Shown here: positions 14,287 through 31,445 of the stretch, piece after piece
Position numbering within the stretch: position 1 is the first letter of the stretch
Layout: each line of letters starts with the position of its first letter
Assembly (NCBI GenBank): GCA_028690365.1
Contig: JAQVBK010000001.1
Span: forward strand, 1 to 43,615
Origin: Candidatus Cloacimonadota bacterium
GTDB lineage: Bacteria; Cloacimonadota; Cloacimonadia; Cloacimonadales; JAQVBK01
Reading direction: 5' to 3'
DNA length: 43,615 nt
Translations under genes and position numbers: made by a program
Notes under the pieces: model-generated
The model's input: only the letters and a program-made list of their open reading frames with translations
Told to the model about the DNA's origin: nothing
The model's database searches: none

Positions 14287-14592
14287 ATGGAAATTGAGTT
14301 AAAATTTTTTAATGAAAAAGCCATCATGAAAATTGACGGCATTGTTACTAGCGAAAATGCTTATGTTTTGCAGAATAAGTTCAATGAAGTCCTTGAATCA
14401 CAAGTAAAAAGGCTGGAAATTGATTTATCAGCTTGTAGAAATATAAGCAGTACCGGAATAGGTAAAATCTTATTGTTCTATAAGGATTTTATCAATAAAA
14501 AAGGTGAACTCGAAGTTGTTAAGTCATCTCAAAGTATTTATGAACTTCTAACTACAATTAAACTGAACCAGTTATTTACAATTAACCTGTAA
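14287..14592 (+). CDS. STAS-domain anti-sigma-factor antagonist (SpoIIAA/RsbV-like)
   Basis: 101 aa. The segment IDLSACRNISSTGIGKILLF matches the DLSxVxxxDSSGLG phospho-serine region of STAS antagonists. Its stop overlaps the next start (TAATG). Confidence 0.72.
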   Translation: MEIELKFFNEKAIMKIDGIVTSENAYVLQNKFNEVLESQVKRLEIDLSACRNISSTGIGKILLFYKDFINKKGELEVVKSSQSIYELLTTIKLNQLFTINL

Positions 14593-15497
14593 TGACAGAA
14601 AGGCAAAATCCGGCAATATTGATTGTTGACGACAGCACTAGTCTGGGCGAGACCATTAGTGAAATATTAAGTTTTGCCGGATATGATGCCGAATATGTTG
14701 TGAGTGGCGCAAAAGCACTAAAAAAAATATCCGAGAATCATTTTGATTTGATTCTTTCAGATATCAATATGCCTGGGATGACAGGACTGGAATTGCTCGA
14801 AAGGATCAATTCTCTGTCAAACGAACCTGTGCCGCTGATAATAATGACAGGTTTTGTGAAACCTGAATTTGCAATACAAGCAGTTCGTCTAGGTGCTGCA
14901 GATTTTATCAGCAAACCAATTGATTTTAATGATCTGCTTCATTCTGTTTCTAAACAAATATCACGATACAGAAAAAAATCCGGTTCCAAAGCGGCAAACA
15001 AATATCTGAAAAAGATGGAAATGAATTTTTCTTTTGATTCGAATCAGTTTGTAAATGGCAATATAACTCCGGCTCTGGCAGAAATCCCACTGGAGAAAAT
15101 GGTAGATATCTCATCCTCTGTATACAATGAAATAATTCTGTGTATAGAAGAGATGTTGAGTAATGCCTTTATTCATTCTATCTTCAAAGTCCCGGATGAA
15201 GTGAGAATGGATAACTACAAAAACTACTATGCTTTCCTGGATGAAAAACTGAAGAATAGTCAAATCAAAAAATCTGTGGTTCATCTCAAACTTACAATTA
15301 ATAATACCCAAAAAGCAATTGAAATTGAAGTAAGAGATCCGGGTACTGGCTTTGACTATCAAAAATATCTTCTCGATGATAGTTCCATGATCGACTTTAA
15401 GGGGAGTGGACGTGGTATTAAAATAATGAATATACTCAGTGATAAACTGGATTTCAAAAATAATGGCAGTACGCTGGTCCTAACTAAATATTTTTAA
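14592..15497 (+). CDS. Response-regulator receiver domain fused to an RsbW/SpoIIAB-like HATPase (serine kinase/anti-sigma) domain
   Basis: The N-terminal REC domain has an acidic pair (DD13-14), the phospho-acceptor in LILSDINMPG (D57) and the conserved Lys in DFISKP. The C-terminal part has an N-box-like EEMLSNAFIHS, a G1 box VRDPGTGFD and a G2-like GSGRGIKIM. There is no HisKA domain. Confidence 0.7.
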   Translation: MTERQNPAILIVDDSTSLGETISEILSFAGYDAEYVVSGAKALKKISENHFDLILSDINMPGMTGLELLERINSLSNEPVPLIIMTGFVKPEFAIQAVRLGAADFISKPIDFNDLLHSVSKQISRYRKKSGSKAANKYLKKMEMNFSFDSNQFVNGNITPALAEIPLEKMVDISSSVYNEIILCIEEMLSNAFIHSIFKVPDEVRMDNYKNYYAFLDEKLKNSQIKKSVVHLKLTINNTQKAIEIEVRDPGTGFDYQKYLLDDSSMIDFKGSGRGIKIMNILSDKLDFKNNGSTLVLTKYF

Positions 15498-18725: not shown

Positions 18726-18981
18726 TTCTGGGATTAATCAAGAAAGAATGCTCTCTTTTAGAAAATGGAATCAGAGGCAACAAGATGATATCTGATAAAC
18801 TAGTTGAGAAAACATTCATCAATAAACTGAAGGTTTTGAAATTTTGCATTTAGGGTAACGAAAAGAATGAAGAATAAGGAGGGATAAAAACTCTTTCGTA
18901 AACACGGTTTTTAAAGATAATGGGAAGTGGGGAAAAGTGTGTGATTAGAATTCATCATTAAGAGGAATTTATTGTGGAGGA

Positions 18982-21900
18982 ATGTTCATGAAGGATGGAA
19001 ATATTGAGAAGATAAAAGAGAAAATCCATAAGAATGAAATGTCTGTTCTCGTAGGAACAGGATTTTCCAAAAATGCTAATCCTAAAATTCCACTTTGGGA
19101 TGAACTGCTGATAGATATGGCTAAAGAATTATATGAACCAGAGTTCTCTGAATGGAAAATAAAAGCGGAGACTAACAACGCTTATGATTTTCTAAAACTT
19201 AAACTCCGAGAAGTTGACTACTTAGAAATTGTTGAAAAATATATCAAATTCAAAGGAATGCGGGAATCTCTTACCTTTTATATTGAGAATAAACTCTGCC
19301 CATTAGATAAAGACCCTGGAAATGATTTAGACGTTCATAAGAAATTAGTGGAGTGCAATTGGAACAACATTTATACTACAAATTATGACACTCTCTTGGA
19401 ACAAGCAGCAAATAGTTCAGGGAAAAAAGACTATCATACGATAATTCATTCGAAAGCCCTTTCTATTGGACCTCAACACAGGATAATCAAGCTCCATGGA
19501 AGCTTAAGGGAATCCGATTGTGACACATTCGGATTCGATAATGACCAAAGTGCCCATTATGTTATCTCTAAATCTGATTATGAAACATATACAAAAAAGC
19601 ACTCTGCTTTTACCCATTTAATGAGAATTGCGTTATTACAAGAATCATTCTGCCTCATTGGTTTTTCCGGAAGCGATCCTAACTTCTTGGCTTGGATTGA
19701 GTGGGTTCGAGATATTTTAAAAGATTCAAAAGATAAAAAAGATAAAAAAGTATATTTTATTGATGTAAATCCTGAAGAGTGTTCAAAAGAAAGAAAATTG
19801 TTCTTTAGCAATCATCAAATTGAATATATTTCACTCAAAAACATTTTTGGAGAACTATCTCGAAAAGAATTGATTAATGAATTCTTGGACTCAATTAGAG
19901 TTGCAAATATCGAAAAGAATGAGAAACAAAAAAATGAATATGTTTCACTCAAAAGCATCTTTGGGGAATCATCCCAAAAAGAATTGTCTAGTAATTTCTT
20001 GGATTCAACTATAGTAACAAATATTGAAGAGAATGAAATGCAAACTATTCAATTACCATCAAAAAATTATTTTAGTCTTTGGCAAGAGCTTAAGAAACAG
20101 CATTTATTCAATAATCCCCTTTTCGAGATTTATAAGAAAATTGAGGACGAAAATAGATATTATAAAATCCCAAACTATTCAGTTTATTCTTCCGCAGAAA
20201 GCTTAATCCGAGAAAAAAGGCAAAATTTAATCAACGGCATCAATGATTCCAAAATTGATAATATCGAAGTTTTAGGCATTATTGCAATGCTTCAAAGAAA
20301 CAGCTATTACAATTTATCAGCGATGTTCGCCGCTGAAGAAATAGAAAAAACAGAGAATGTTTTTTCCAAGATTGATATTAAACAACTAAACGAAAATCAG
20401 TTTACTAAATGGCAGAACTTCGCTCTCAGTTTTTTAAGAGATTACCGATACAATTTGAATGAAAAGAAATTCAACAATCTCTTTGAAAAACTAAAGTCAA
20501 CAGAAAACACAGCATCTGACTTTTATGATGATATTTATTTTGAAAAGCTGTTATTTTTAGCAAATAAATTGGATTATACAGAATTGATAAAAGGATTGGA
20601 TAACTGGAAACTAACAGACGAATCATCAGCGTGGGCATACATCAGGAAAGCGTATTTATTTAATCTTATAAGAATTCCCAAGTATCAGGAACAGATAACG
20701 AAGACAGTCAATCAAGCAATAAAGAAAACCAATATTGAACAAGAAAAACTTTGGTTTTATGAAATTCTGTCATTTTATCAATTCTCAGAAAATTTCAGAA
20801 CAGATGAAGTTATAACAGCAAAAATTAAGGATTATAAACATAAAGGTTATTACTCCATTGATGATATAATGAAATCTCTTACAAACAAAAAAGAGAAAAA
20901 AGATATAAAACCATCCGAGGCAAGTAGATACACAATAACTCATTCAATGGGCAATCCTCAAGAAGATTTTCCTTGGGATTCTGTGAGATTTATTGAGTTC
21001 TTGAACTGTTTTGGTATTCCTCTAGTCCCAAATATCAAATTCCCTGTTACTGTGTTTGACAGTAACAAATGGTTTGAGATTGCAGTTGATGTGCTCGAAG
21101 GAATGCCACGAGAAGTTCTTTTTATATCCTTCCAATATTCAGGGAATGATATGTCGGAAAATTTCTTAAGAACAATAATTCAAAGAATAGTCTTTAGTAA
21201 GAAAATAAGCAATGAGTTGAAGTTTGAGATTTTCTCTAAATGCTGCAATTCTTTTTACTATTATTTTAGTGACTTAGGAGTTTATAACTCTACATTCATC
21301 TTTGCAATTTCGGAATTGATTTCATGCTTGAGTTATGAAAAATGGGAGAAATTCTTTTACGAATTGTGGGTACTTCAAACAGATACAAGCAAGGTTATTA
21401 ATAAAAAGTTTTATTCTTCTGTCTGGGGTTTAAGTAATGTTATCCCTAAATTTTTACCTTATATTGAAGATAATGTACTGCTCAATGAAATGGTTGTAAC
21501 TTTATTTGAATTCGACTTTTATGTTGATGGAGATGACCAAGAAAATACTGCTCTTAAATACCTCGAGAAAATTCTTTTATATAATCCATTTTTTTATGCA
21601 ATCCCTTCATGTAAAGAAAAAATCAAAGGTTATGTCCAATCTCTTTTAAACAAGGAGACTTTGTCTGAAAAAGAGTTGATTAAAATCAAATATTATAGGA
21701 GTAAAATTAGCAAGAAATCAAATAGATTAATTAGAAAGAAGCTTAATTCTATTGACCTATCCAAAGAACTTATTTTCCGCTGGCAAATACTACTGGAGCT
21801 AACAGATTCAGATGTCGATATGGATTACAAACTTCGTGAATACCTTGTACATAATCCAAACATTATTTTTTCAACCGGAATTAATAATAGTGGAAGAAGT

Positions 21901-22629
21901 GGCGGAGGGTGGTATTTTAAAGTATCTGATACTTTAAAAACAAATGAGGAGACAGATTATTTCTTAGATTGGTCAAGAGAACAAATCATTTATATCTTTA
22001 ACAAATTAAAAACATCTCTTAAGCAACTTCAGGACTATAAAGCAAAACATCAGGGAATATTTTTTTCTTTTAATGATGAGGCTGTTCTATATGATATGAG
22101 AAAATTCCTATGTGTCAATAAAACTGAACTTAAAAAAAATGATGATTTTGAGAGGTTTTTAAAAGATGTTGAAGAAATGTACTTTGCTGAAATAGGTACT
22201 GACAGCATCATTCAAGGATTGCTGTCTGATGATGAGAATCAACTACATTGGTCTGTTGTTTCTTTAATAGAAGAAATGAAAAATTATCCTGAGAAAGAAG
22301 ATGATATACCCTGGCTCGCTTTATTGATGAAAATAATCAGAAAGGACGCAGTCAAGTTGGAGTTAGCTATTGAATACTTCTCCTTTATATTAACTGACAT
22401 TATCAAGAATCAGGATTGGGTAAAAAAATATACCCCGTTTTATGTAGAAATTCTGCGAAATTACTATGAAAATATTCCGGCTGAACTTGATAGAATCTTT
22501 GTAGAATTTTTCTTGATTAAGGTAGCTAAAGTTTTAAAGGATTGGAAAATTGAGGATCAAATTATTGATGAATGGCTTGAAATAAAAGAGAATTCAGAAT
22601 TTTTGAAGATCAGAAATATGACTTTATAA
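18982..22629 (+). CDS. Large defence-type SIR2 (SIR2_2-like) NADase-domain protein with a long unassigned helical C-terminal region (DSR2-like architecture)
   Basis: The N-terminal ~280 aa carry the defence-SIR2 motif set in order. These are VLVGTGFSK..IPLWDELL (nt ~19045), NIYTTNYDTLLEQA (TTNYD at 19375-19389), IIKLHGSL (19489-19503) and LIGFSGSDPNFLAWI (~19660). The remaining ~860 aa have no motif I can recognise and no Walker A. The true start may be ATG 18988, which lies 7 nt after GGAGG, rather than 18982. Confidence 0.8.
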   Translation: MFMKDGNIEKIKEKIHKNEMSVLVGTGFSKNANPKIPLWDELLIDMAKELYEPEFSEWKIKAETNNAYDFLKLKLREVDYLEIVEKYIKFKGMRESLTFYIENKLCPLDKDPGNDLDVHKKLVECNWNNIYTTNYDTLLEQAANSSGKKDYHTIIHSKALSIGPQHRIIKLHGSLRESDCDTFGFDNDQSAHYVISKSDYETYTKKHSAFTHLMRIALLQESFCLIGFSGSDPNFLAWIEWVRDILKDSKDKKDKKVYFIDVNPEECSKERKLFFSNHQIEYISLKNIFGELSRKELINEFLDSIRVANIEKNEKQKNEYVSLKSIFGESSQKELSSNFLDSTIVTNIEENEMQTIQLPSKNYFSLWQELKKQHLFNNPLFEIYKKIEDENRYYKIPNYSVYSSAESLIREKRQNLINGINDSKIDNIEVLGIIAMLQRNSYYNLSAMFAAEEIEKTENVFSKIDIKQLNENQFTKWQNFALSFLRDYRYNLNEKKFNNLFEKLKSTENTASDFYDDIYFEKLLFLANKLDYTELIKGLDNWKLTDESSAWAYIRKAYLFNLIRIPKYQEQITKTVNQAIKKTNIEQEKLWFYEILSFYQFSENFRTDEVITAKIKDYKHKGYYSIDDIMKSLTNKKEKKDIKPSEASRYTITHSMGNPQEDFPWDSVRFIEFLNCFGIPLVPNIKFPVTVFDSNKWFEIAVDVLEGMPREVLFISFQYSGNDMSENFLRTIIQRIVFSKKISNELKFEIFSKCCNSFYYYFSDLGVYNSTFIFAISELISCLSYEKWEKFFYELWVLQTDTSKVINKKFYSSVWGLSNVIPKFLPYIEDNVLLNEMVVTLFEFDFYVDGDDQENTALKYLEKILLYNPFFYAIPSCKEKIKGYVQSLLNKETLSEKELIKIKYYRSKISKKSNRLIRKKLNSIDLSKELIFRWQILLELTDSDVDMDYKLREYLVHNPNIIFSTGINNSGRSGGGWYFKVSDTLKTNEETDYFLDWSREQIIYIFNKLKTSLKQLQDYKAKHQGIFFSFNDEAVLYDMRKFLCVNKTELKKNDDFERFLKDVEEMYFAEIGTDSIIQGLLSDDENQLHWSVVSLIEEMKNYPEKEDDIPWLALLMKIIRKDAVKLELAIEYFSFILTDIIKNQDWVKKYTPFYVEILRNYYENIPAELDRIFVEFFLIKVAKVLKDWKIEDQIIDEWLEIKENSEFLKIRNMTL
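19822..20049 (+). repeat. In-frame tandem duplication (2 x 114 nt = 2 x 38 aa) inside the SIR2-protein gene
   Basis: Copy 1 starts GAATATATTTCACTCAAAAACATTTTTGG at 19822. Copy 2 starts GAATATGTTTCACTCAAAAGCATCTTTGG at 19936. The protein copies are EYISLKNIFGELSRKELINEFLDSIRVANIEKNEKQKN and EYVSLKSIFGESSQKELSSNFLDSTIVTNIEENEMQTI. By eye about three quarters of the nucleotides are identical. Confidence 0.9.
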
Positions 22630-22697: not shown

Positions 22698-23706
22698 ATG
22701 AGTAAAGAAATATCTACACAAAAAGAATTTAATGAACTACTTAAGTTGATTCAGCAGACAAGGCAAAAGACCTATGCTCAAATCAATTCAACACTAATTG
22801 AGCTCTACTGGAAAATAGGTAAACATATCAGCAAAAAAGTAAATTCAGCCGCTTGGGGGAAAAGCATAGTTAGTGAATTGGCAAAATATATTGCCAGTAA
22901 TGATCCTGAGATAAAAGGCTTTAGCGATAAAAATCTCTGGCGAATGAAACAATTTTATGAAGCATATAAAGACACTCCAAAACTCTCAACACTGTTGAGA
23001 GAATTACCTTGGTCTCATAACTTGGCTATTTTTTCACGATGTAAAACAGATGAAGAACGAGAATTTTATCTGACTCTTACCATTCAAGAAAAGTATAGTT
23101 TCCGCGAACTTGATAGGCAGATTTCAACCAGTTTTTTTGAGCGAACAATTTCAGATGACAAGAAACTCTCAACAGCGTTGAGAGAATTGCAGCCGAATAT
23201 CGACAGGACTTTTAAAGATAGCTATGTTCTGGAATTATTAGGTTTATCGGAGAGTCATAGCGAAAGTGATCTAAAAATGTCACTGATTCACCACATGAAG
23301 GCATTTATTCTTGAACTGGGTAAAGATTTCATTTTTGTTGGAGAAGAATATCGATTACAGGTTGGAAATCAGGATTTCTTTATTGATCTACTGTTCTTTC
23401 ATCGAGGTCTTTGTGCTCTGGTTGCTTTTGAACTAAAAACTGGGAAATTCAATAGAACATTTGGGTCAAATCAATTTCTATTTAGAGGCATTGGATAGAG
23501 ATGTGAAAAAACCGCATGAAAATCCGAGTATCGGCATTTTACTATGTCGAGATAAAGATGAAGAGGTTGTGGAATATGCTCTTTCACGCAATCTTTCTCC
23601 TGCTCTGATTGCTGAATACCAACTGCAATTACCAGATAAAAAATTGATTAAAGAGAAACTACATGAGATATTCGTCAGCGAAACGAGTGGAAAAAACAAA
23701 AAATGA
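22698..23706 (+). pseudogene. YhcG/DUF1016-family PD-(D/E)XK nuclease, interrupted by a single frameshift
   Basis: ORF 22698-23498 has the YhcG N-terminal signature (LIELYWKIGKHI...WGKSIVSELAKYI...GFSDKNLWRMKQFYEAY...LPWSHNLAI...EREFYL) and the nuclease core (FFIDLLFF...VAFELKTGKF). The family C-terminus (LGQINFYLEALDRDVKKPHENPSIGILLC...) continues in the +1 frame (ORF 23461-23706). The frame switch must lie within 23437-23460. Confidence 0.8.
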
Positions 23707-29580: not shown

Positions 29581-31445
29581 ATGCCGGGAGGAAAACTGAA
29601 AGAAAAGATGAAGGCTATCAATGACAGAATGATTGTTCTTCTGTTTTGGCTGCTATTCTCACTTTTCTCTCCGCTTGGGGCTGTAGTTTCTTCAGCGGAC
29701 AGTGCTGGGATAATCAGTAGTATTGGAATTGCAATACTTGCTGCTTCTCTGATGGCATATTTTTGCTATAAACTTAAACAACCCCTTATTTTGGCGTATC
29801 TGGCGGCAGGAGTAATAATTGGTCCGGAGATTGGAGTCGGTCTAATAAAAGATATGGGGGAAATCAGGTCTATTTCAAATTTCGGTTTAATTCTTCTCAT
29901 GTTTCTTATTGGGTTGGAAATTGATCTCAAAAAATTCAGATCTGCCGGTAAATCTTTATTAATAACTGGATTGCTTCAGTTTCCTTTGACTATTGTGGTT
30001 GGAGTAGGGTTTTGTTATCTTATTGGAATTCCAGCAGATATAACCCAAATGGGAATACTGTATTTGGCTGTTGGTATAAGCTTGAGCAGTGCGGCAATAA
30101 TTGTGAAACAGTTATATGCCAAGCATGAGCTAGATACTCTTGCCGGAAGAACAACTCTGGGAATTCTGGTTTTTCAGTCATTGTGGGCGATGGTTCTGCT
30201 TAGTTTGCAACAGAATCTTTTAACTGGTGATCTCTTTTCTGAGTTTTTAGCAATTCTGAAGGTTGCTGCTTTAGTGACAGTAAGTATGCTGTTGAGCAAG
30301 TATTTACTCCCGGTTTCTTTAAAAGTATCGCAAAAGTGCCTGAGATAGTTTTGATTTCAGCACTAGGGTGGTGTTTCATGATTTGCGGAGCAGCATATTA
30401 CCTCAATATTTCATTGCCGGTGGGAGCGTTGATTGCCGGAGTAGCTATTTCAACCTTTCCCTATAATCTTGATGTCATCTCGAAAATTACTAATATTCGG
30501 GTCTTCTTCTCGACGCTCTTTTTTGTTTCTGTCGGGATGCAAATTCCAAATCCGTTTCTCAATCCTGAACTGTTTTTGATAGCCTTTGCAGCTTCATTTC
30601 TTTTGATAGTATCGCGTTTCATTATTGTTTTCCCTGTTCTTTTCTCACTGAAAAATGGGTTGCGTGCAAGTTTACTCCCGGCAATTAATCTGACACAAAT
30701 GAGTGAACTCTCCATTGCAATAGCTATTTTGGGAGTTTCAGTGGGTCATATTTCGACAGATGTATTGTCGATTATAATCTTTATTTTTGTGATAACGTCA
30801 ATAATATCAACGTATATGATGACTTGTAGTGATCATTTGCAAAGACGCATTAGCAAAATTCTCACAAAAGCGGGATTAAAAGACATTGCAGGGAAAACTG
30901 ACATTAACGATGATGAAAACAAAAAAGAGATACTCCTGTTAGGTTTCTACAGGGTTGCGAGTTCACTTTTAAGCGAAGTTCTTGTTTCAGAAGAAGAAAA
31001 AATTCTTTCATCAGTTAAACAAAAAATCATTGTGGTAGATTTTAATCCCGAGATTCACCAATTGCTGAAAAAAAAAGGAATAAAAGCACTTTACGGAGAT
31101 GTTAGTCATCTCGATTCTCTACGCAATATCAATATGCAGGACATAAAACTGATAATTTCAACTATTCCCGACACAATACTGGTAGGAACCAATAACAACA
31201 GGCTTGTTAGGCAAATGAAGGTTCTCTGCCCGCAGGCAAAGATAATTGTTACTGCAGATAGTATTGTTCATGCTGAAAATATGTATAAATCCGGTGCCGA
31301 CTATGTATTTTTGCCAAGAATTCTTTCGGCTAGAAGTATCGGGAAAATTATTGAACTGATTATGAGTAATTCAGTTGAAGAGATAAATGAATTTATCAAT
31401 TCAGAAAAAGAAGACCTGAAAAATCGTGTTGAACTGATGCGGTAA
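29581..31445 (+). pseudogene. Kef-type (CPA2) cation:proton antiporter with a C-terminal RCK/TrkA-N domain, split by a frameshift
   Basis: ORF 29581-30348 has the Na_H_exchanger N-terminal helices (LAYLAAGVIIGPEIG...). ORF 30336-31445 continues the same family (PEIVLISALGW...GALIAGVAIS), then a Rossmann-like RCK region. Reading ...KYLLPV in one frame and FKSIAKVPEIVLISAL in the other joins them seamlessly at GGTTTCTTT (~30313-30320). Confidence 0.78.

Follow-up and report, generated by a model that had tools for sequence, protein, structure and literature searches.

A SIR2-type NADase, an enzyme that hydrolyses nicotinamide adenine dinucleotide (NAD+), is the effector common to DSR1, SIR2-HerA, SIR2 with prokaryotic Argonaute (SIR2/pAgo, SPARSA), Avs5, and Kongming KomC, the last being a 264-amino-acid (aa) subunit of a multi-protein system. 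The Thoeris NADase ThsA, of about 480 aa, joins SIR2 to a SLOG domain and is activated by a cyclic ADP-ribose isomer rather than by a protein ligand. Among single-chain relatives, DSR2 of Bacillus subtilis 29R (WP_029317421, 1005 aa; PDB 8WKS, 8WY8, 8K9A and others) is mechanistically characterised and senses the tail tube protein (PMC10981675), and characterised DSR2 acts as a single gene (bioRxiv 10.1101/2021.12.14.472415). Its N133A and H171A substitutions impair NADase activity (PMC10981675), and mutating the catalytic residues abolishes defence (PMC10981675; bioRxiv 10.1101/2021.12.14.472415). Another group is modelled as Dsr2 in NCBIfam (NF041819) and PADLOC (PDLC02184); the canonical reference used here is a plasmid protein of Clostridium tyrobutyricum, WP_017895821 (1246 aa), annotated by the Prokaryotic Genome Annotation Pipeline (PGAP). 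The subject of the present analysis is a gene in a stretch of 43,615 nucleotides (nt) from a Candidatus Cloacimonadota bacterium (contig JAQVBK010000001.1, positions 1 to 43,615; hereafter the window), which is likely to encode a stand-alone, single-chain anti-phage sensor-effector of the DSR2 superfamily, that is, a phage-triggered NADase acting through abortive infection.

This reading is drawn from an intact active site, a SIR2 domain of the DSR2 type, a homologous solenoid, accessory status, the lack of a conserved partner gene, and the defence-island setting of several homologues. The gene product is one chain, in which a SIR2 domain is followed by a linker and an alpha-solenoid:

18982-22629, forward strand: the whole SIR2 gene, a single open frame of 1215 codons followed by TAA

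From a GGAGG at 18976-18980 the distance is 1 nt to the ATG at 18982 and 7 nt to the ATG at 18988. Since the 7-nt spacing and the 1213-aa database product of this contig both favour the latter, the real start is probably 18988, which would give a protein of 1213 aa with its catalytic residues at N132 and H170. The numbering below counts from 18982.

The SIR2 domain and its active site

The N-terminal domain and the motifs on which its predicted activity depends are located as follows:

18982-19896, forward strand: N-terminal defence-type SIR2 (SIR2_2) domain, aa 1-305, the predicted NAD+ glycohydrolase effector
19054-19068, forward strand: GTGFS, aa 25-29, glycine-rich NAD-binding loop
19375-19389, forward strand: TTNYD, aa 132-136, in which N134 (AAT at 19381-19383) is the predicted catalytic Asn
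19489-19503, forward strand: KLHGS, aa 170-174, in which H172 (CAT at 19495-19497) is the predicted catalytic His
19660-19686, forward strand: GFSGSDPNF, aa 227-235, a conserved SIR2_2 motif whose form in canonical Dsr2 is GFSGNDPNF

A first-pass annotation, made from the letters alone, had assigned this N-terminus to the SIR2 superfamily, and profile searches agree. Pfam SIR2_2 (PF13289) matches aa 129-283 with an expectation value (E) of 1e-19 and 71.5 bits, against a cut-off of 24.5; PADLOC Dsr2 matches aa 8-323 at E 3.8e-43; and Dsr2 is the sole NCBIfam match (E 1.1e-46, aa 8-338 against model positions 8-306 of 1215). The PADLOC ThsA model ranks below Dsr2, matching the SIR2 part alone at E 2.6e-19 (model positions 10-234 of 478), and PADLOC Dsr1 gave no match at E <= 1, the Dsr2 and ThsA models alone being reported. 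Pfam, PADLOC, and NCBIfam placed no domain beyond SIR2, Dsr2, and ThsA anywhere in the protein, and a motif scan found no Walker A, strict or loose ([AG]xxxxGK[ST]); for the C-terminal ~860 aa the same annotation had likewise noted no Walker A, nuclease, TIR, HerA, or Argonaute signature.

All five members of the ordered motif set that had been proposed were recovered, at aa 25, 37 (PLWDELL), 132, 170, and 227, and the AAT and CAT codons establish that Asn134 and His172 are intact, as had been claimed. TTNYD is invariant across 42 homologues, and K170, H172, and G173 are invariant in alignments of 21-42 homologues. Little or no variation is seen across 21-42 homologues at T132, T133, N134, D136, K170, H172, G173, and G227-F235. 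In the alignment of 21 homologues G25 does not vary and G27, F28, and S29 hardly do, all four being invariant in a broader SIR2-domain alignment; the invariant residues of GFSGSDPNF in those 21 homologues are G227, F228, S229, D232, P233, N234, and F235. Owing to the Pfam match and this near-invariance, the motifs are not chance matches. A BLASTP alignment further shows GFSGxDPNF to be common to the query and C. tyrobutyricum Dsr2.

When the broader SIR2-domain profile was searched against the PDB, B. subtilis DSR2 came first (E 2e-29), above ThsA and KomC, and the profile alignment pairs N134 and H172 with N133 and H171 of the B. subtilis DSR2 chains. The first-pass annotation had placed the DSR2 catalytic residues at about these two positions, which are correct according to PMC10981675. 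Against SIR2-only DSR2 chains, Foldseek gave template modelling (TM) scores of 0.70-0.74 at a root-mean-square deviation of about 4.3 A. The motifs themselves differ, B. subtilis DSR2 carrying VGAGVS and GYGLGDYN where the query has VGTGFSKNA and GFSGSDPNF. ThsA contains a SIR2_2 domain related to that of the query, and its PDB chains 7UXT, 8WC0, and 6LHX were matched in the sequence searches.

Bacteroidota relatives of ~1,280-1,300 aa (for example P0035, P0053, and P0084) carry an insertion of ~100-150 aa inside the SIR2 domain, between TTNYD and KLHGS, and their N-termini also match separate PADLOC 'SIR2' models.

Relation to the Dsr2 families

The NCBIfam/PADLOC Dsr2 proteins resemble the query in being single chains of ~1,200 aa with an N-terminal SIR2_2 domain and the motifs VGAGFSKNA, TTNYD, KLHGS, and GFSGxDPNF, and both are encoded by stand-alone genes on mobile or accessory DNA. 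The canonical family around WP_017895821 is a tight clade whose members are 44-69% identical. Compared by hhalign, the profile of the query's family aligns with the canonical protein as far as about aa 730 (probability 100, E 2e-40, columns 17-710), and the N-termini alone align at E 2.3e-55 with 32% identity. The C-termini were also compared on their own, with aa 356-1215 as a profile of 21 sequences against Dsr2 aa 300-1246 as a profile of 26 sequences; they align with a probability of 99.2 and E 1.7e-19 over 718 collinear columns that reach both C-termini, and reversed-sequence controls gave E 0.08 and 0.2. Identity in this C-terminal part is just about 14%, and the homology is one at the profile level. 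The expectation that no housekeeping domain would be found in the C-terminus was upheld, the region being homologous instead to the C-terminus of NCBIfam Dsr2. On these profile alignments, the whole protein is a distant, full-length homologue of the ~1,240-aa NCBIfam/PADLOC Dsr2 clade. The relatives P0002 and P0005 align to PADLOC Dsr2 positions 12-1180 and 10-1162 of 1222, at low scores of 116-156 bits.

A phmmer search with the C-terminus (aa 355-1215) against 1.84 billion representatives returned 126 clusters at E <= 1e-3, nearly all of them SIR2 proteins of similar length. Because the ids of these clusters do not overlap with those of 120 listed canonical Dsr2 proteins, the clade of the query appears to be a separate sister clade to canonical Dsr2.

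B. subtilis DSR2 has the same order of parts as the query, with SIR2, a middle helical region, and a C-terminal alpha-solenoid, and is about 210 aa shorter. By sequence comparison it is more distant from the query than the NCBIfam/PADLOC Dsr2 clade is, and its trigger (the SPR tail tube protein), its inhibitor (DSAD1), and its tetramer interface are not transferable to the query. A phmmer search with canonical C. tyrobutyricum Dsr2 did not detect B. subtilis DSR2 in the PDB at E <= 10; the name 'DSR2' thus spans at least two very distant groups, linked solely by a broad SIR2 profile.

Other SIR2 systems differ more plainly. Unlike ThsA, the query has no SLOG/STALD or TIR domain in the protein or its neighbours, and no ThsB/TIR gene lies nearby; unlike SIR2-HerA and SIR2/pAgo, it has no HerA, Argonaute, or other partner gene at its locus; and unlike Avs5 and SIR2-STAND, with their central STAND NTPase, it contains neither an NTPase domain (Pfam) nor a Walker A.

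The linker and the C-terminal solenoid

The remainder of the chain is divided as follows:

19810-20037, forward strand: 114-nt tandem duplication in frame, 2 x 38 aa, spanning aa 277-352 where the SIR2 domain ends
20053-20931, forward strand: first helical-repeat block, aa 358-650, the positional counterpart of the DSR2 middle domain
20974-22626, forward strand: second helical-repeat block, aa 665-1215, the predicted trigger-sensing alpha-solenoid, helical by AlphaFold2

AlphaFold2 was run on aa 16-1215 and on aa 355-1215. The longer model, with a predicted local distance difference test score (pLDDT) of 82.8 and a predicted TM score (pTM) of 0.66, consists of an alpha/beta SIR2 domain, a disordered linker, and an all-helical solenoid; the shorter one (pLDDT 88.5, pTM 0.88) is almost entirely helices. 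In the first helical block pLDDT is mostly 85-97, Y520 is nearly invariant, and K556 is invariant among 21 homologues. The C-terminal region abounds in K, L, I, E, F, S, and N. The C-terminal ~860 aa had been described as all-helical, and the helicity held; the description is incomplete in that the helices are preceded by a disordered linker of ~50 aa (aa 308-357), which separates them from the SIR2 domain and corresponds in the longer model to pLDDT below 50 at model residues 293-342.

The duplication makes up most of this linker. Its two 38-aa copies are YISLKNIFGELSRKELINEFLDS and YVSLKSIFGESSQKELSSNFLDS; Tandem Repeats Finder (TRF) reports a period of 114, 1.9 copies, and 80% matches, and a separate repeat search gives 78% identity between the copies. 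At the linker, the closest homologue (P0002, 69% identical) lacks about 50 aa. Because the duplication is in frame, lies in the disordered linker, and has copies that diverged to 78-80% identity, it is old and tolerated.

Within the family, identity is about 50% in the SIR2 part and about 24% in the C-terminal part. This contrast, with the effector half about twice as conserved, is consistent with the pattern expected for a conserved effector joined to a fast-evolving sensor. A Foldseek search of the full model against the PDB placed full-length B. subtilis DSR2 chains in all 44 best matches, at E 5e-12 to 1e-8.

The solenoid is also found in other architectures. In P0295 and P0302 (~1,720 aa) it is accompanied by an N-terminus matching TCAD9 and a C-terminal AAA_21/SMC_N (OLD/AbiEii-like) ATPase, and in P0242 (1,972 aa) by an N-terminal extension of 1,138 aa, in which a weak AAA_22 match stands alone. 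The sensor module may have been re-used with other effectors, or these three proteins may be gene-call fusions.

Homologues and their neighbourhoods

A word-indexed search returned 1027 relatives, the closest being 69%, 47%, and 43% identical. Many relatives measure 1,150-1,320 aa, with alignments that cover 87-99% of the query, and carry no annotation more specific than 'SIR2 family protein'. Most members of the sister clade belong to Bacteroidota, Spirochaetota, Delongbacteria, and uncultured lineages. The best match in a set of 185,579 species-representative genomes, at 31% identity, comes from a metagenome-assembled genome (MAG) of Spirochaetes, and no Cloacimonadota genome is found among the best 80 species-representative matches; the distribution is therefore patchy.

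Seven homologue neighbourhoods were compared, and four are defence-type. P0008 and P0010 lie inside type I restriction-modification (R-M) operons, together with DUF4062, SLFN/AlbA_2, SEC-C, and RhuM genes; P0009 lies between two SLFN/AlbA_2 genes; and P0012 adjoins a UvrD-like helicase gene, a SIR2-TPR gene, and prophage-type repressor genes. As for the remaining three, P0002 occupies another locus than that of the window, between Asp/Glu racemase and transglutaminase genes, P0016 is inserted in dnaX-ybaB-recR, and P0015 stands among metabolic genes. No partner gene is common to the seven neighbourhoods, and YhcG/DUF1016 adjoins the homologue in none of them.

In the two type I R-M operons, the homologues, which are 30% identical (L085 10001-13537 and L171 3680-7318), occupy the same position, with the order HsdM, DUF4062, SLFN-AlbA_2, HsdS, SIR2, SEC-C protein, RhuM, HsdR, which constitutes a conserved composite defence island.

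The locus and its accessory status

The window is chromosomal. Its gene order runs rpoB, rpoC, rpsL, rpsG, fusA, a STAS gene, a receiver/HATPase_c_2 gene, prmC, a murA-like gene, wecB, and the SIR2 gene, after which come a DUF1016/YhcG nuclease gene, a periplasmic-binding/chemotaxis-type sensor gene, a thiamin pyrophosphokinase gene, a polysaccharide-synthesis gene, and Hsp33. The wecB product is about 70% identical to its counterparts from Cloacimonadota MAGs, including Candidatus Tenebribacter. Syntenic Cloacimonadota keep fusA-prmC-murA-wecB and have no SIR2 or YhcG gene after wecB. The SIR2 gene is accessory, as the first-pass annotation had supposed: it is missing in syntenic relatives, its 69%-identical homologue is found elsewhere, and the best 80 matches contain no Cloacimonadota.

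The guanine-plus-cytosine (GC) content of the SIR2 gene is 0.307, against 0.35-0.37 in the flanks. Together with the YhcG gene it forms an islet of ~5 kb, in which the low GC is clear in the SIR2 gene alone, the YhcG gene being flank-like at 0.351. As to mobile-element boundaries, no notable direct repeats flank the islet and no tRNA gene is nearby, the sole tRNA of the window being tRNA-Trp at 182-257. A sequence scan revealed no conspicuous promoter-like sites, these being fewer than in shuffles, and no conspicuous terminator-like sites, these being only slightly more numerous than in shuffles.

The downstream neighbour is placed outside the system:

22698-23706, forward strand: DUF1016/YhcG PD-(D/E)xK nuclease gene, matching the PADLOC candidate PDC-S02 at E 5.6e-95

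A frameshift near 23460-23500 splits this gene into overlapping open reading frames (ORFs) at 22698-23498 and 23461-23706, the first matching Pfam DUF1016_N and YhcG_C positions 3-86 of 157, and the second YhcG_C positions 88-156; the split gene is either a pseudogene or an assembly error. No more than 68 nt separates the two neighbouring genes, which share a strand and lie together between housekeeping genes, and the nuclease gene matches PDC-S02; these features would suit a two-gene system in which SIR2 is the effector half and does not work alone. Such a system is exceedingly improbable here, given that the nuclease gene is frameshifted, that neither a YhcG/DUF1016 neighbour nor any other conserved partner is present in the seven homologue neighbourhoods, and that characterised DSR2 works as a single gene. 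HerA, pAgo, TIR/ThsB, and the YhcG nuclease were all rejected as partners on the basis of the window and the homologue neighbourhoods.

Further along the window, at 29581-31445 on the forward strand, a Na+/H+ exchanger gene (KefB-like, TrkA_N) is apparently split into overlapping ORFs at 29581-30348 and 30336-31445, which cover Pfam profile positions 2-200 and 207-371; it is the second gene in the window with an apparent frameshift. The two split genes, and the internal 114-nt duplication in the SIR2 gene, could also be explained if the SIR2 gene were an inactive remnant in a decaying islet. This explanation is highly improbable, since the 3.6-kb frame is fully open in DNA of 31% GC, every predicted catalytic or NAD-binding residue is intact and invariant, and the duplication is of the in-frame, diverged, and tolerated kind described above.

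Between fusA and prmC, at 14287-15497 on the forward strand, lie the STAS-domain gene and the receiver/HATPase_c_2 (RsbW-like) gene. By tblastn, neither is found between fusA and prmC in four related Cloacimonadota loci that span both, where the gap is ~80-260 nt, which suggests that a partner-switching module was inserted here in one lineage.

Weighing the evidence

Several observations weigh against a DSR2-like, single-chain NADase. In sequence comparisons, the NCBIfam Dsr2 equivalog cut-off is missed widely (159.5 vs 1400 bits), the query's own PADLOC Dsr2 match is limited to the SIR2 part (model positions 13-298 of 1222), and neither whole-protein phmmer nor the full-length family profile finds a DSR2 chain in the PDB, with ThsA, KomC, and other SIR2 proteins returned instead. 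In structural comparisons by Foldseek, the global TM score of the full model to full-length DSR2 chains is just 0.22-0.28; the C-terminal model alone matches karyopherins, importins, CAND1, and SF3B1 (E ~1e-5), which are generic HEAT/ARM solenoids; and no DSR2 chain is present in the 50 best matches of that model (E reaching 1.3e-3). Additionally, three of the seven homologue neighbourhoods (P0002, P0016, P0015) are without recognisable defence genes, and the two frameshift-split genes of the window make some local decay or assembly error possible, though the SIR2 ORF is intact.

Because the search with the C-terminus alone misses DSR2 in its top 50, the solenoid likeness is regarded as generic; as far as the models indicate, the structural likeness to B. 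subtilis DSR2 is specific only in the SIR2 domain. The full-length Foldseek match, which at first glance suggests a common sensor, is not counted as evidence of sensor homology on the strength of this C-terminus-only search. Comparison of the C-terminal model with the PDB did not yield a sensor domain with the fold and binding pocket of the tail-tube-binding C-terminal domain (CTD) of B. subtilis DSR2, the one DSR2 sensor whose structure is solved. The earlier expectation of a highly diverged sensor proved right: B. subtilis DSR2 is absent from the 50 best structural matches, and identity to canonical Dsr2 is low.

This divergence bears on the trigger. A DSR2-like NADase might be triggered by something other than a phage structural protein, such as a plasmid, a mobile element, or a perturbation of the host, so that the analogy would hold for the effector only. 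The roughly 14% identity of the sensor to canonical Dsr2, a fold that is not specifically like the B. subtilis DSR2 sensor, and the fusion of the solenoid to TCAD9 and an AAA_21/OLD-like ATPase in P0295 and P0302 would all suit such a trigger; this alternative is nevertheless judged rather unlikely, as there is no positive evidence for a non-phage trigger and the sole characterised relative senses the tail tube protein. Since the sensor half is divergent, the trigger may well be something other than a tail tube protein. More tentatively, and with somewhat less than an even chance, the query and the ~126 clusters could represent a distinct DSR2-like subtype, whose fast-evolving solenoid would bind some protein of phages or mobile elements distinct from the tail tube protein, and whose sensor would be re-used with non-SIR2 partners, as in P0295 and P0302; the solenoid would then be a portable pattern-recognition domain and no mere appendage peculiar to DSR2.

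The generic solenoid and the three homologues among metabolic or replication genes also bear on whether the protein is immune at all. SIR2 folds include deacylases, and the solenoid is similar to scaffold and transport proteins of eukaryotes; an NAD-dependent enzyme with a regulatory or housekeeping task, for example a protein deacylase or an ADP-ribosyltransferase, could be carried on such a large scaffold. A non-immune role of this kind is very unlikely, however, because the domain is SIR2_2 (PF13289) rather than a classical sirtuin, the proteins closest to it (Dsr2, ThsA, KomC) are without exception defence NADases, the gene is patchily distributed, below its flanks in GC, and missing from syntenic relatives, and four of the seven homologue neighbourhoods are defence-type.

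Proposed mechanism and significance

For the preferred reading, a DSR2-like single-chain sensor-effector, a course of action can be proposed on the model of B. subtilis DSR2. The SIR2 domain would be kept inactive, probably in an oligomer, by the C-terminal alpha-solenoid (aa ~358-1215). Binding of a phage-derived protein to the solenoid would free the SIR2 NAD+ glycohydrolase; N134 and H172 would then hydrolyse NAD+ to ADP-ribose and nicotinamide, and the infected cell would lose its NAD+, which would abort phage replication. NADase activity, oligomerisation, activation by a phage protein, abortive infection, and the identity of the trigger are all predictions at this stage.

The protein is a divergent member of a known defence family and represents neither a new system type nor a new mechanism; the value of the finding is incremental, consisting of a better annotation and a candidate for trigger discovery, and it answers no long-standing question. 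If the protein is active, NAD+-depletion immunity of the DSR2 type would extend to Cloacimonadota, an uncultured anaerobic phylum, and about 126 clusters (50% identity), which current annotation rules call no more than 'SIR2 family protein', would be defined as a sister clade. This clade is a reasonable place in which to seek a new phage-protein trigger and to study the diversification of solenoid sensors.

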